Shown: in pieces, positions 27,432-32,576 of the stretch | Numbering within the stretch: position 1 is the stretch's first letter | Layout of the letters: each line of letters begins with the position of its first letter | From: Candidatus Doudnabacteria bacterium RIFCSPHIGHO2_01_FULL_46_24 | GTDB lineage: Bacteria; Patescibacteriota; Doudnabacteria; UBA920; O2-02-FULL-48-8 | Length of the DNA: 64,000 nucleotides | Reading direction: 5' to 3' | NCBI GenBank assembly: GCA_001777575.1 | Contig: MFEL01000018.1 | Coordinates: 8,264 to 72,263 of the forward strand | Made by a program: the position numbers and the translations under genes | Notes under the pieces: model-generated | Databases searched by the model: none | What the model saw: only the letters and a program-made list of their open reading frames with translations | Told to the model about the DNA's origin: nothing

Positions 27432-30317
27432 TTATCTTACTTTCAAAACCCTCGCCAAATATTGCCCAGTATAACTCTTTTTTACCTTTGCCACTTCTTC
27501 CGGCGTGCCAACAGCCACTACCTCTCCGCCCTTGTCGCCGCCTTCGGGGCCGAGGTCAATGACCCAGTCCGCGTTTTTTATGACATCCAAATTATGCTCA
27601 ATGACCAAAACCGTATTGCCTTTTTCCACCAAACGGTTCAAGACACTAAGCAGCCTTTTGACGTCGTCAAAATGCAAGCCCGTAGTCGGCTCATCAAGGA
27701 TGTAAAGAGTGCGGCCAGTGGAGGCGCGTGAAAGTTCGGAAGCCAGCTTGATGCGCTGGGCCTCGCCGCCGGACAGGGTGGTGGCTTGCTGGCCCAAATG
27801 CATATAGCCCAAACCAACCAAAGACAGGGTTTCCAATTTGCGCGCCACGATCGGCACGTTGCGGAAAAACACATAAGCTTCATCCACGGTCATTTCCAAA
27901 ACGTCTGATACGTTTTTGCCCTTGTAATGGATATCCAGCGCTTCTTTGTTGTAGCGCTTGCCCTTGCATTCCTCGCAAGAGACATACACGTCAGGCAAAA
28001 AATGCATCTCGATTTTGATCACGCCATCGCCGCCGCAGACTTCGCACCGCCCGCCTTTGACATTGAAAGAAAACCGGCCGGCTTTGTAGCCCCGCATCTT
28101 GGCTTCCGGGGTGGCGGCGAATAAATCGCGGATGTAAGTAAACACGCCGGTGTAAGTCGCCGGGTTGGAGCGCGGCGTGCGCCCAATGGGTGATTGGTCA
28201 ATGTTGATGACCTTATCAATGTTGTCGATGCCTAAAATTTTCTGGTGTTCCCCGGGCGATTCCTTGGCATTGTAAAAATAAGCGGACAGCGCCTTGGCCA
28301 GGATTTCATTCAAAAGCGTGGATTTACCGCTGCCGGAAACGCCGGTTAAGCAGACAAATTTGCCCAGGGGAATTTCCACGTCAATGTTTTTGAGATTGAA
28401 TTCGGAAGCGCCGACGATTTTTAAGCTTCGGGCATTGCCGCGCTTCCGCGCTGTCGGCACGGGGATTGATTCCGCGCCCGAAAGGTATTTGCCGGTCAGG
28501 GAATTTTTATCTTTGGCAATTTGCTGCGGGGTGCCTTCAGCCACCACTTCCCCGCCGTGCTTGCCCGCGCCCGGGCCGATGTCAATCACCCAGTCAGCCG
28601 TGGTAATGGTTTCCGCGTCATGCTCAACCACAATCACGGTGTTGCCCAGATCCCGGAGATTTTTCAAGGTTTTGAGAAGCCGGGCATTGTCGCGCTGATG
28701 GAGGCCAATGGACGGCTCATCCAAAATGTACAGCACGCCGGTCAAGCCCGAACCGATCTGCGTGGCCAGGCGAATGCGCTGCGCTTCCCCGCCGGACAGC
28801 GTGTCCGCGCTGCGGTCCAAAGTCAGATAATTCAACCCCACATCCTGGAGGAATTTAAGCCGTAGGGTGATTTCTTTCAAAATCTGGTGGGCGATTTTTT
28901 GCTCCTTCTCGGAAAGTTTCCGGGCCAGTTTTTCAAAAAAACCAACCGTATTGTCAATGTTGAGGCAAGCGACATCGACAATGGACCGGCCGTCTACGGT
29001 CACAGCCAGGAATTCCGGTTTCAGCCGCCGGCCTTTGCATGTCGGACAAATTTTAATCCGCATGTACTGCTCAATTTCTCCCCGCATATAATCCGAGTCC
29101 GTGCCTTTGTACCGGCGCATGAGGTTGGGAATCACGCCTTCAAACGCCGAGTACATTTCGAACTGGCCTTCGCGGGTGGCAAACTCTCCGGCTAATTTCA
29201 GCTTCTTTTCGCCGGTTCCATACAACACCGTGTCCAGAGCTTTTTTGGGCAAATCCTTCACCGGCATATTGAGCGAAAAATTGTATTCGCGCGACAGCGC
29301 TTCCAAAATCCGGCCGTACCAGGTCAGCCGCGACGTGGTTTTGCTCCACGGCCGGATCGCGCCCTCGGCCAGGGTCAATTTGGGATTGGGAATCACTAAT
29401 TCGGGATCAATTTCCAAGCGCGTGCCCAAACCCGTGCAGTCCGGGCAGGCCCCATGCGGAGAATTGAACGAAAAGTTGCGGGGATTAAGCTCGGGTAAAT
29501 TCATATGCCCGTCCGGACAGGTAAAATTGGCGGAGAAGAGAATTTCCTGATGTGGAGGGGCATCCTCCCTGCCTGGCGCTCGTCTTGGAAGATGCCCCTC
29601 CATATTGATAATCACCGCGTCATTTCCCAGGTCCAATGCAGTTTCCAAAGAATCGGCAATCCTGGCCCGGTCGCCGGAATCCAAAGAGATCCGGTCCACC
29701 ACCACGTCAATCGTGTGTTTCTTTTTCTTGTCAACGTTGAGATTCAGCGCCTCCGATACATCCATCACGGTCCGGTCAAACCGCACGCGCTGATACCCGC
29801 TTTTGCGCACTTCTTCCAACAAATGCTTATGCTCGCCTTTCTGGTCGCGGATCATGGGAGCCATAATGATAATCTTGGTAGACTCCGGCAGAGAAACGAT
29901 CTGATCCACCATCTGCGTCACAGTCTGGCCCACAATTTTCTTGCCACAGACTGAACAATGCGGAATGCCGATGCGGGCAAACAGCAACCGAAGGTAATCG
30001 TAAATTTCCGTCACCGTGCCGACTGTGGAGCGCGGGTTGTGGGAAGCGGATTTTTGGTCTATGGAAATAGCGGGCGACAGGCCGGTGATTTGATCCACGT
30101 CCGGCTTGTCCATAAGTCCCAAAAACTGCCGGGCGTAAGCCGAAAGAGACTCCACATAGCGCCGCTGCCCTTCGGCATAGATAGTGTCAAAGGCCAGGGA
30201 CGATTTGCCGCTACCCGAAAGGCCCGTGATGACCACGAGCTTGTTTCTCGGGATATCAACATTGATGTTTTTGAGATTGTGGACCCGCGCCCCGCGGACG
30301 GAAATTTTTTCCTGCAT
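27432..30317 (-). CDS. uvrA: excinuclease ABC subunit A
   Basis: Two ABC ATPase modules ([27 protein letters not shown]), LSGGEAQR signatures, zinc fingers; 961 aa. Confidence 0.97.
29554..29601. repeat. 48-bp palindromic element inserted in frame in uvrA (encodes [16 protein letters not shown])
   Basis: GGAGGGGCATCCTCC-N18-GGAAGATGCCCCTCC; the arms are reverse complements of each other. Confidence 0.75.
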
Positions 30318-30719: not shown

Positions 30720-32576
30720 ATGCAAAAAAGCTTAACAGATAAAATCAAAGAACTTCCCAACCAACCCGGGGTCTATATTTTCAAAGACGCCAAGGGTTTG
30801 ATTTTATATGTCGGCAAGGCGATTAACCTGCACAACCGCGTGCGGTCGTACTTTCGGGAGAGGCATCCTCCTGGCAGAGCGCCAATCTTGGAGGATGCCC
30901 CTCCACGCATCCAGCTCATGATTTCTCAAATCGCTGATCTAGATTACACAATCACGGACAATGAGCTGGAGAGCCTGCTTTTGGAAAACAACTTTATCAA
31001 GCAGCTTAAACCCAAATACAATATCTTGATGCGGGATGATAAAAATTATCTGTTCATCAAGATTAACATCAAGGACGAAATTCCCACGATCGGCTATGAC
31101 CGGAAACCAAGTGATAAGAATGCCAGATATTTCGGGCCTTATACTTCCAGCATTGCCATCAAAGACAATCTGCGTCTGGTGCGCAAAATCTTTCCTTACT
31201 GCGCCAACAAAAAAATCACAGGCAAGCCTTGTTTTTATTTCCACATCGGCAAATGCCCGGGCGTGTGCGTGGGTAAAATTTCGCTGGCAGAGTATCGCCA
31301 AAACTACATCGGAAAAATTATCCAATTTTTGCAGGGCAAGCAATTGGAAATTCTCAAAAATCTAAAACTCCAAATGCAGGGATATGCGCGGAGTAAAATG
31401 TTTGAAAAAGCCGCCAAAGTCCGCGACCAAATTTATGCGCTTAACCGGGTGTTAGAACGACAAAAACTGGTCTATCCCAAAAAAGTTGACCAGGATGTAT
31501 TCAGCATCCATGTCGAAGCATCAATCGCCTGCGTCAATTTGTTTATAATCCGCGAAGGCAAGCTGATCAGGAAAGAAAATTTTATTCTGGAAAACACCAA
31601 GGGCGCTCAAGTTGCAAAAATCCTCTCGGAATTTTTGCCTAGATATTATTTGGAGGCCACAGATTGGCCGAGGGAGATTCTGGTGCCGGCCTTGGAGGGG
31701 CATCCTCCCAGACTGGCGCGCGGCGAGGAGGATGCCCCTCCACCAAAAATTCTCGTCCCCACCCGCGGGCAGAAACTCAAGCTCATCAAACTCGGCGAAC
31801 TAAACGCCAAGCAATTCCTGGAAGCTCAATCAGACAAACATCTGTTGGAGGAGGCTCGGCTGATGAGTGCTCTGAAAGAGCTGCAACGAGTCTTAAATCT
31901 CAAAAAATTGCCTGGCCGGATCGAAGCTTACGATATCTCCAACATCCAAGGCAGGCACGCGGTAGGCTCTATGGTCGTGTTTGACTATGGACATCCGAAA
32001 AAAGAAGATTACCGGCGATTTAAGATTAAACGCCAGACCGTGTCCGCCGAAGGCTCGCCGAAGGCGGATGACTTCGCGATGATGCGGGAAGTTCTCACTA
32101 GGCGCTTTGGAAAAACAATAACTGTTAACAATAACGATAACCGCTCATGGCCGCTGCCTGACCTCATTCTCATCGACGGTGGACGCGGCCAACTCAATGC
32201 CGCCCAATCCGTAATTCGTAATTCGCAATTCGTAATTCCCGCAATTGGCCTCGCCAAGCGCCTGGAAGAAATCTTCGTTCCCGGACAATCCAAATCTTTA
32301 ATCCTACAACCGAACTCAATAGCGCTATTCTTGTTACAAAGGATCCGCGATGAGGCCCACCGCTTCGCCGTCACTTACCACCGCAAACTCCGCTCAAAAG
32401 CAGCCAAGGCTTCGGCCCTGGACCAAATTCCAGGCATCGGAAATGCAAAAAAACGAAAAATCCTGGCTTATTTCGGATCTGTGGCTAAAATCCGCCAAGC
32501 TCCCTTGGGAGAACTTGCCCAAATCGTCGGCAACGCGCTGGCCGAAAAAATCAAAGCCAGCCTGCCTGACCGGTAG
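30720..32576 (+). CDS. uvrC: excinuclease ABC subunit C
   Basis: GIY-YIG start PGVYIFKDAKGLILYVGKA, UvrBC-binding region, RNaseH-like and HhH C-terminus; real start is ATG 30720 (TATAAT 8 nt upstream), not the track start 30549. Confidence 0.92.
   Translation: MQKSLTDKIKELPNQPGVYIFKDAKGLILYVGKAINLHNRVRSYFRERHPPGRAPILEDAPPRIQLMISQIADLDYTITDNELESLLLENNFIKQLKPKYNILMRDDKNYLFIKINIKDEIPTIGYDRKPSDKNARYFGPYTSSIAIKDNLRLVRKIFPYCANKKITGKPCFYFHIGKCPGVCVGKISLAEYRQNYIGKIIQFLQGKQLEILKNLKLQMQGYARSKMFEKAAKVRDQIYALNRVLERQKLVYPKKVDQDVFSIHVEASIACVNLFIIREGKLIRKENFILENTKGAQVAKILSEFLPRYYLEATDWPREILVPALEGHPPRLARGEEDAPPPKILVPTRGQKLKLIKLGELNAKQFLEAQSDKHLLEEARLMSALKELQRVLNLKKLPGRIEAYDISNIQGRHAVGSMVVFDYGHPKKEDYRRFKIKRQTVSAEGSPKADDFAMMREVLTRRFGKTITVNNNDNRSWPLPDLILIDGGRGQLNAAQSVIRNSQFVIPAIGLAKRLEEIFVPGQSKSLILQPNSIALFLLQRIRDEAHRFAVTYHRKLRSKAAKASALDQIPGIGNAKKRKILAYFGSVAKIRQAPLGELAQIVGNALAEKIKASLPDR
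30858..30905. repeat. 48-bp palindromic element in frame in uvrC, copy 1 (encodes ERHPPGRAPILEDAPP)
   Basis: GGAGAGGCATCCTCC-tggcagagcgccaatctt-GGAGGATGCCCCTCC. Confidence 0.75.
31695..31742. repeat. 48-bp palindromic element in frame in uvrC, copy 2 (encodes EGHPPRLARGEEDAPP)
   Basis: GGAGGGGCATCCTCC-N18-GGAGGATGCCCCTCC. Confidence 0.75.
32206..32240. repeat. tandem AATCCGT/AATTCGT/AATTCGC heptamer array in frame in uvrC
   Basis: aatccgtaattcgtaattcgcaattcgtaattccc encodes SVIRNSQFVIP. Confidence 0.65.

Follow-up and report, generated by a model that had tools for sequence, protein, structure and literature searches.

The window analysed here, a stretch of 64,000 nucleotides (nt) from Candidatus Doudnabacteria bacterium RIFCSPHIGHO2_01_FULL_46_24 (contig MFEL01000018.1, positions 8,264 to 72,263, forward strand), carries the divergent repair genes uvrA and uvrC and, further along, the gene ychF. 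Copies of a 48-bp palindromic repeat, the subject of this report, lie within all three of these genes. Direct reading and a scan of the whole window revealed four such palindromes and one solo 15-nt unit, and these are listed here together with their host genes.

15926..15946, minus strand: solo unit, one arm with a TGT/ACA extension, TGTGGAGGATGCCCCTCCACA; intergenic, just 3' of dnaJ
27432..30317, minus strand: uvrA, 961 aa, with Pfam domains
29554..29601, minus strand: 48-bp palindrome in uvrA, sense strand GGAGGGGCATCTTCC-AAGACGAGCGCCAGGCAG-GGAGGATGCCCCTCC; UvrA residues 240-255
30720..32576, plus strand: uvrC, 618 aa, with Pfam GIY-YIG, UVR, UvrC_RNaseH and HHH
30857..30904, plus strand: 48-bp palindrome, uvrC site 1, encoding ERHPPGRAPILEDAPP; UvrC residues 47-62, in the GIY-YIG domain
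31694..31741, plus strand: 48-bp palindrome, uvrC site 2, with perfect arms, encoding EGHPPRLARGEEDAPP; UvrC residues 326-341
43544..44632, plus strand: ychF, 362 aa, with Pfam MMR_HSR1 and YchF-GTPase_C; matches solved YchF structures
44188..44235, plus strand: 48-bp palindrome in ychF, arms GGAGGGGCGCCCTCC / GGAGGGCGCCCCTCC; YchF residues 216-231

Architecture and copies of the repeat

The original prediction, made from the sequence alone, described three palindromic copies, one in uvrA and two in uvrC. Direct reading and translation bear out all three, with the peptides as they had been written, and add the fourth copy in ychF (44188-44235), a gene named among the checks proposed there. The coordinates first given for the uvrC copies, 30858-30905 and 31695-31742, are those of the codon-aligned 48 nt, and the palindromes start one base earlier (30857 and 31694). 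The start codon of uvrC lies at 30720 and not at 30549, the position proposed by the open reading frame finder. The sequence surveyed comprised the window and a 10-kb flank on each side (83 kb in total), and the extensions on both sides of the contig held no further copy.

All four doublets share one build, with a 15-nt arm, a spacer of exactly 18 nt that has GCGC at spacer positions 8-11, and the reverse-complement arm. The 15-nt unit has the consensus GGAGGGGC-RY-CCTCC and is present as two inverted copies per doublet; the ends of the element read (T)GGAGG...CCTCC(A), and a single arm can also fold on itself (GGAGG-N5-CCTCC). The arms had been described as exact reverse complements, and this is true of uvrC site 2, whereas the uvrA and uvrC site-1 copies have one arm mismatch each. 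The mismatch in uvrA (plus strand, GGAAGATGCCCCTCC) becomes a G-U wobble pair in the sense RNA, and that in uvrC site 1 (GGAGAGGC...) forms a G-U wobble in the antisense RNA only. The ychF copy carries a compensated GC variant in both arms; it shares 16 of 18 spacer bases with the uvrC site-1 copy, yet the two differ in two fully compensated arm pairs. The doublets are clustered, with three of the four lying within 2.2 kb and three belonging to the divergent uvrA-uvrC pair.

When compared with shuffled versions of the window, the strict two-arm pattern gave two matches against 0.00 expected, so that the copies are more frequent than chance would produce. A single arm, allowing up to three mismatches, gave nine matches against 1.62 expected, a number reached by none of 100 shuffles, and the 12- to 14-mers of the arm are the commonest long oligomers in the 83 kb, with 5-6 occurrences each. 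Folding of the sense RNAs of the doublets produced hairpins of 15-16 bp, in line with the 15-bp stem that had been anticipated, and energies of -33 to -41 kcal/mol (uvrA -33.6, uvrC site 1 -33.4, uvrC site 2 -40.4 and ychF -41.0 kcal/mol; z = -4.1 to -5.5). No Rfam family matches the element.

The host proteins are 100% identical to the UvrA, UvrC and YchF of Candidatus Doudnabacteria bacterium RIFCSPHIGHO2_12_FULL_48_11, a genome of the Candidate Phyla Radiation (CPR)/Patescibacteria from Rifle groundwater. Contigs that encode identical proteins number at least 15 for UvrA, 16 for UvrC and at least 24 for YchF, and since these come from several samples and assemblers, the elements are not assembly artefacts.

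The solo unit (15926-15946) matches the right arm of uvrC site 1 at 18 of 18 positions. It folds into a hairpin of 8 bp, 3 nt downstream from the stop codon of dnaJ, is followed by a U-rich tract on the dnaJ strand, and was flagged as terminator-like by a terminator scan, a pattern that the genic copies do not match. This singlet may be a remnant or half of an element that now occupies the place where a terminator hairpin would be. A role for the genic copies as internal terminators was rejected, as they have no T run on either strand.

Reading frame and position in the host proteins

All four genic copies are continuous with the frame of their host gene, and of three open frames they all use one and the same (EGHPP...E[D/G]APP). 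The claim that one family of dispersed palindromes lies in frame in housekeeping genes without breaking them is upheld by the uninterrupted frames of uvrA, uvrC and ychF. Had the encoded peptides been found in distant orthologs that lack the nucleotide palindrome, this picture would have been different, and they are absent from the UvrA, UvrC and YchF alignments: the uvrA segment occurs in 0 of 119 orthologs, uvrC site 1 in 0 of 95 and the ychF segment in 0 of 90.

The 119 UvrA orthologs, which are 74-86% identical, have a tight turn at this position (clade consensus VIIQK-NEK-EEILLS), and about 18 other UvrA orthologs carry unrelated extra residues at the same turn. The element starts directly after the Pfam UvrA_inter domain (residues 131-239), and alignment with the solved UvrA of G. 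stearothermophilus (2R6F) opens a 14-residue gap exactly at the element. At uvrC site 1, the 95 orthologs have a loop of 6-8 residues where there are 16 in the window. In the AlphaFold model of UvrC (mean pLDDT, a per-residue confidence score, 87.9), this segment (47-62) is coil with a pLDDT of about 50, between helices 37-45 and 62-70, and is among the least confident regions of the model. The uvrA and first uvrC copies had been estimated to be net loop insertions of about 10 residues; both are indeed additions in loops, of 14 and about 8 residues, respectively.

The second uvrC copy is different in kind. It stands where UvrC normally has a variable linker of about 17 residues and brings almost no net gain in length; the model shows it as coil, with strands 319-321 and 343-345 on either side. 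The word 'inserted', as it had been applied to this copy, does not fit, because there is no net insertion, the place of a linker has been taken, and the copy is old and shared with orthologs of about 70% identity (see below). The YchF peptide, absent from the 90 aligned YchF representatives, is also absent from the ortholog on contig L026. The copy in ychF replaces a segment that varies widely; compared with the nearest Doudnabacteria orthologs the segment has about 8 additional residues, and that of Thermus YchF (2DBY) exceeds it by 4. Mapping onto structures, which had been proposed as a way to examine surface exposure, thus placed the UvrC sites in model coil, the UvrA site at a gap relative to 2R6F, and the YchF site by its position relative to 2DBY. 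The genic copies sit in loops whose length varies among orthologs, and at least two of them are lineage-specific gains.

An intein was rejected as an explanation, the segments being far too short. It was also considered whether the 48 nt might never be translated, either because they are cut out of the mRNA or because ribosomes hop over them, in the manner of T4 gene 60 and the mitochondrial 'byp' elements; the 48-nt size and strong hairpin resemble bypassed elements of that kind. Every copy is a multiple of three, stop-free in the host frame and in one shared frame, none of which would be needed if the segment were skipped; the flanks show no obvious take-off/landing codon pair, and the copies are found exactly where orthologs tolerate extra residues. 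An untranslated segment is therefore extremely improbable.

Relatives, arm conservation and other palindromes

Two UvrC orthologs of about 70% identity (P0003 on contig L016 and P0004 on L017) carry LEGHPPRLALNWEGAPP at site 2, and the underlying DNA is a palindrome of the same type, whose arms (GGAGGGGCACCCTCC / GGAGGGTGCCCCTCC) are perfect and whose 18-nt spacer is centred on GCGC. Neither L016 nor L017 has the uvrC site-1 copy, and the UvrA of L017 (85% identical) lacks the uvrA copy. Site 2 is therefore old, and the lineage of the window gained the other copies later. At the left junction of the site-2 element in L016 (1225-1248) there is a 12-bp tandem duplication (AGCCTGGAGGGA AGCCTGGAGGGG), which encodes LEGSLEG and copies the first bases of the arm; it could be a product of replication slippage at the foot of the hairpin.

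A scan of metagenomes found one contig (L015) with a further doublet that has the same arms and lies in non-coding DNA adjoining another palindrome. The repeat family is dispersed: the 83 kb contain four doublets and one singlet, two relatives have a doublet each, and L015 has an intergenic one. A search of the genome and of related genomes for genic and intergenic copies had been suggested at the outset, and it did find dispersed copies, the genome part of it covering the 83 kb. No CPR genome was among the matches when reference genomes were scanned for the two-arm pattern, and a scan of viral sequences found no copy. The reference-genome matches were palindromes of 46 bp with arms GGAGGGGC(A/C)CC(T/C)TCC, in Micromonospora, Catellatospora, Plantactinospora and a metagenome-assembled genome (MAG) of Actinomycetota (L001-L006, L009-L014). 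They are often flanked by TTA...TAA, number several per genome and also occur in a few MAGs, and in two cases (L011 and L012) the arms are identical to the Doudnabacteria arm GGAGGGGCACCCTCC. Although the resemblance in the arms is striking, these Micromonosporaceae palindromes are probably an unrelated family that resembles REPs (repetitive extragenic palindromes), and the likeness convergent.

The protein IF3 (P0121) was rejected as a fifth host. It came up as a single 24-bit match in a profile search with the tripled 16-18 residue peptide, capped at an E-value of 10, and its contig, L022 (a scaffold of 1037 bp from the ENA), is chimeric: the 48-bp palindrome is where a fragment of infC meets the uvrC site 2 of the window in reverse complement, and the sequence diverges again at the far end. 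The join yielded a spurious IF3 that carries the repeat peptide.

Arm pairing and covariation were assessed in seven copies (the four of the window and those of L015, L016 and L017), in all of which the spacer is 18 nt long. Across these copies 97% of arm cells pair, compared with 54-62% in slid controls, and the observed pairing or covariation score was reached by none of 500 shuffles. Three arm pairs have changed on both sides, one from A-T to G-C in ychF, one from C-G to T-A when lineages are compared, and the third being the flanking T/A pair. When the orthologous uvrC site 2 is compared between the window and L017, the arms are identical at 28 of 30 positions, the spacer at only 9 of 18, and the next 150 coding bases at 101. 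At third codon positions the figures are 9/10 in the arms and 25/50 downstream (Fisher p = 0.003 over all positions). The arms are held complementary and their sequence stays nearly constant, whereas the loop drifts. Template switching at quasi-palindromes is an established mutational mechanism that can keep arms complementary, but on its own it leaves the constancy of the arm sequence unexplained, which requires constraint in situ, homogenisation against other copies or re-insertion.

Conservation of this kind bears on what is being conserved. If the 16-residue EGHPP...EDAPP segment were a protein module with a function of its own, and the palindrome incidental, then the use of one frame and the similar peptides of all six genic copies would be expected. 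Third codon positions are conserved in the arms as well (9/10), the family includes an intergenic copy and a solo unit that are not translated, the central part of the peptide is free to vary, the hosts have no relationship to one another, the segments are low-confidence coil in the model, and the peptide is so far absent from orthologs in the UvrC, UvrA and YchF alignments. Selection at the protein level is, for these reasons, highly improbable.

The equivalent linker of other uvrC genes is informative. On contig L027 the linker is of the standard kind (VKINETELQPAFTARRF) and has no inverted repeat. L026, whose UvrC is, like P0003 and P0004, among the closest full-length orthologs recovered (70% identity, BLASTP), has a different 48-nt palindrome in its linker, with arms AAAGGGCACCTTT / AAAGGTGCCCTTT, which is read in another frame and encodes QRAPLLSGFSTKKVPF. 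Three further small palindromes, rich in GC, are present in the linker of L025 and encode PPLTLRGG and LPPLILRGG; one of the families recurs intergenically after the RNase J gene, and yet another palindrome is found further along the same uvrC. An ancestral functional hairpin in uvrC was rejected, L027 having the standard linker and none there. Given the absence of a hairpin in L027 and the unrelated palindromes in L025 and L026, the hairpin was acquired and is not ancestral in uvrC mRNA. The different small palindromes and extra residues found at the uvrC linker and the UvrA turn indicate that these are permissive sites, repeatedly colonised in the clade. The palindrome sites noted in these relatives are L025:11008-11093, 11490-11518 and 16451-16477, and L026:11024-11071 and ~11426-11497, and the palindrome peptides of Doudnabacteria further include PPPERPGRAG and a longer palindromic insert that encodes VIASEAKQSQKEIAASPAAPRNDK.

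Such observations also weigh on the idea that the repeats are functional cis elements under selection, either mRNA hairpins that affect translation, folding or decay, or a symmetric DNA operator through which a dimeric regulator co-controls uvrA, uvrC and ychF. The repeat family would then reflect the need for a common signal rather than mobility. This would account for site-2 arms that are conserved above the neighbouring synonymous rate beside a spacer that is only 50% identical, for compensated changes in the stem, a spacer length that is invariant (18 nt in 7/7 copies), the presence of three copies in the divergent uvrA-uvrC pair, and the great stability of the hairpins. It is less easily reconciled with the lack of a hairpin at these positions in most Doudnabacteria orthologs (including the uvrC linker of L027), with the unrelated palindromes at the same spot in other lineages, which better fit a permissive site, or with the existence of an intergenic copy and a solo unit. 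The imperfect copies also disagree on the strand (G-U in the sense RNA for uvrA, and in the antisense RNA for uvrC site 1), no U-tract follows the genic hairpins, and Rfam offers no match. On balance, a cis-regulatory role is unlikely.

Another way to explain the constancy of the arms is that the 15-nt unit is a recognition signal kept by molecular drive, for example a DNA-uptake sequence that serves the competence machinery of these DNA-scavenging bacteria. The DNA uptake sequences (DUS) and uptake signal sequences (USS) of Neisseria and Pasteurellaceae show inverted pairing, a bias to repair genes and a frame bias. Like these, the unit is a conserved sequence of about 12-15 nt that occurs in inverted pairs, and its genic copies favour repair genes, one particular frame and poorly conserved protein segments. 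It is conserved in sequence across genomes and at synonymous sites, beyond what pairing demands, it is the top over-represented 12- to 14-mer, and dprA is present in the window. The density of about 1 unit per 9 kb is, however, around ten-fold below that of known uptake sequences (roughly 1 per kb), a single singlet was seen, and the unit is missing from related 22-kb syntenic regions, namely L025 and L026 (by arm scan) and L027 (by palindrome listing). The fixed geometry of the doublet, with its 18-nt spacer and GCGC core, would also go unexplained, and an uptake signal is very unlikely. It is the arm conservation that keeps both this and the cis-element explanation in contention.

Taken more broadly, the proposal that the 15-nt unit is an actively maintained, sequence-specific signal, whether for DNA uptake, for recombination or as the site of a dedicated hairpin-binding enzyme, is distinctly doubtful. 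It would explain arm conservation beyond synonymous sites as well as the single reading frame and, if true, there would be a genuine functional connection between palindromic repeats and repair genes behind their recurrent placement in nucleotide-excision-repair genes, here as well as in Opitutus, Thioalkalivibrio and Rickettsia (PMC3733652).

A proposed REPIN-like family, related systems and other features of the window

The reading preferred here, to which we assign a probability of roughly 0.6, is that the palindromes form a small, non-autonomous repeat family of Candidatus Doudnabacteria that has the architecture of REP doublets (REPINs) and behaves like the Rickettsia palindromic elements (RPEs). 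Mobility and selfishness would be properties of such a family. Copies may be made by a hairpin-dependent process on single-stranded DNA, with the enzyme supplied in trans; the obvious candidate would be a Y1/HUH transposase of the RAYT (REP-associated tyrosine transposase) or IS200/IS605 type, none of which was seen in the 83 kb. Genic copies would survive only where 16 stop-free codons are tolerated, and would then be translated as a surface loop rich in Pro, Gly and charged residues. Trimming of resident loop residues after insertion could give the net gains of +14, +8, +8 and ~0 instead of +16. Complementarity of the arms might be kept by selection on the hairpin of the element, by quasi-palindrome template-switch correction, or by both.

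Several observations weigh against a mobile family of this kind. The net length changes (uvrA +14, uvrC site 1 +8, uvrC site 2 ~0, ychF +8) never equal the +16 of the whole element. The genes with Pfam annotation, in the window and in the 10 kb on either side, include no transposase of any kind, and neither a Y1_Tnp domain nor an insertion sequence (IS) was present among the annotated genes of the readable 83 kb. The flanks of the seven copies contain no direct repeat that could be a target-site duplication, and no copy has the GTAG or CGTC tag of the described REP superfamilies. The relatives found include no clean empty site, and no empty-site junctions could be defined, because the nearest relatives (UvrA 85%, UvrC 70-75% identical) are too diverged at the DNA level; protein cluster look-ups likewise returned no population variant that lacks an element. 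The copy number in 83 kb is low, with most doublets so close together. The use of a single frame, of three that are open, by all genic copies is not predicted by neutral insertion, and the conservation of the site-2 arms above the synonymous rate of the flanking gene is not predicted by plain decaying junk. Given that transposase, target-site duplication and tag were not found, membership of a REP superfamily is not claimed. The original description of the repeats as RPE-like selfish DNA is apt as regards their in-frame behaviour; by membership they are not RPEs (48 bp compared with ~100-150 bp), and their mobility is only inferred.

Among known systems, intragenic REPs provide the closest parallel. 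Di Nocera et al. (2013; PMC3733652) reported that intragenic REP singlets and dimers encode 20-30 residues, that many of them sit in uvrA, uvrB, uvrC, uvrD, recBCD and polA, and that Opitutus terrae has two uvrA genes, each with two REP inserts. In some species, repair genes are the only REP-tagged genes, and most intragenic insertions are thought to be neutral, lying in linkers or loops (PMC3733652). REPINs (Bertels & Rainey, 2011; PMC3116915) consist, by the definition in PMC3337134, of two inverted REPs and a spacer. Like REPs, the repeats of the window are short stem-loops, rich in GC, found both singly and as inverted doublets that can fold into a longer hairpin, and some of them lie in frame within genes. 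The doublet geometry is present (15-nt arms and an 18-nt spacer, with 97% arm pairing in 7 copies), and so is a singlet that coexists with doublets, in a single case (15926-15946). They differ in having no GTAG/CGTC tag, a unit of 15 nt, and a doublet of only 48 bp with a fixed 18-nt spacer, and no RAYT was seen within 83 kb. Whereas REPs are mainly extragenic, all four doublets in the stretch surveyed are genic (nine arm occurrences in 83 kb, with 4/5 loci genic), and the host is a CPR genome of roughly 1 Mb.

RPEs (Ogata et al., 2000, 2002; summarised in PMC10969869), the classic in-frame palindromic repeats of Rickettsia, are similar in behaviour. In both cases a reduced genome has in-frame palindromes in housekeeping genes that are unrelated to one another, translation turns them into extra surface segments that the protein fold can accommodate, and some copies are old and shared between species. 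RPEs comprise the Rickettsia families RPE-1 to RPE-10, of ~100-150 bp, so that the 48-bp element is separated from them by size and host, and their insertions are net additions, whereas the net gains here are smaller than the element. [quoted passage not shown] The GC clusters, double-hairpin and 'byp' elements of mitochondria are likewise small, GC-rich palindromes that invade the coding sequence of an AT-richer genome; they belong to fungal mitochondria and some are bypassed in translation, and nothing in the window requires bypassing. No paper linking CPR/Patescibacteria with REP, RAYT, MITE or in-frame palindromes was found among open-access papers. It had been stated that no such case was known for small-genome uncultivated bacteria, and the CPR setting does seem to be unreported, while in-frame REPs in uvrA, uvrB and other repair genes have been published (PMC3733652). 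With 3/4 doublets in uvrA and uvrC, the present case closely matches the published picture of intragenic REPs and adds a new lineage to it.

A second repeat family, built on the heptamers ATTACGG / ATTCGTA, occurs both in intergenic DNA and in frame within genes, at the following positions.

1096-1122: heptamer repeat in the der/engA linker
10246-10272: heptamer repeat in a MOFRL/DUF4147 gene
32215-32240: heptamer repeat in uvrC
40176-40227: heptamer repeat, intergenic

The peptides of this family include NSQFAIRNSKITDYGLRI, KITDYELRIKN and SVIRNSQFVIP, and its existence means that the 48-bp palindrome is not the only repeat to have colonised genes of this genome in frame. The intergenic region between uvrA and uvrC contains a long, imperfect palindrome (30337-30425; TGTCATCCCGACCGAAC ... 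GTTCGAAATGACA). In the same place L017 has a gene for a 23S_rRNA_IVP (four-helix-bundle) protein, and another 23S_rRNA_IVP gene is found in the window at 61599-61958, between two Pyr_redox_2 genes.

Elsewhere, three very large genes (421, 985 and 1517 aa) on the minus strand at 48337-57132 contain long, degenerate GGNGNN-type repeats (family D1, 19 copies), and two of them share an 88%-identical repeat of 156 nt at their 3' ends (family D2, 48337-48492 and 52579-52734). Their Pfam matches are only to FG-GAP, Dockerin, GBS_Bsp-like and He_PIG, from which they are probably surface proteins. For its size the window has many genes of toxin-antitoxin or abortive-infection type (9155-9487, 23839-24171, 2225-2650, 43269-43544 and 62950-63726): two BrnT/CopG-antitoxin pairs (73-80% identical DNA), PhdYeFM/PIN, a ParE directly upstream of ychF, and AbiEii. 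An AT-rich motif, TTTAATCTTTAATCT, immediately upstream of several genes (532-582, 20355-20426, 46514-46564 and 61958-61994) may be a shared promoter or leader element.

The practical consequence of these repeats is that they caused at least one chimeric metagenome scaffold (L022) and inflate the apparent number of lineage-specific insertions in CPR proteins, and annotators and structure predictors should recognise them. For the biology of the group, the palindromes extend the in-frame colonisation of essential and housekeeping genes by tiny repeats to the Candidate Phyla Radiation, whose genomes are assumed to be streamlined. They also provide an independent case of a published and unexplained pattern, the preference of intragenic REPs for uvrABC and other repair genes. 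The orthologous copy in uvrC, with arms that evolve more slowly than neighbouring synonymous sites, offers a rare handle on whether or not such an element is a neutral passenger.

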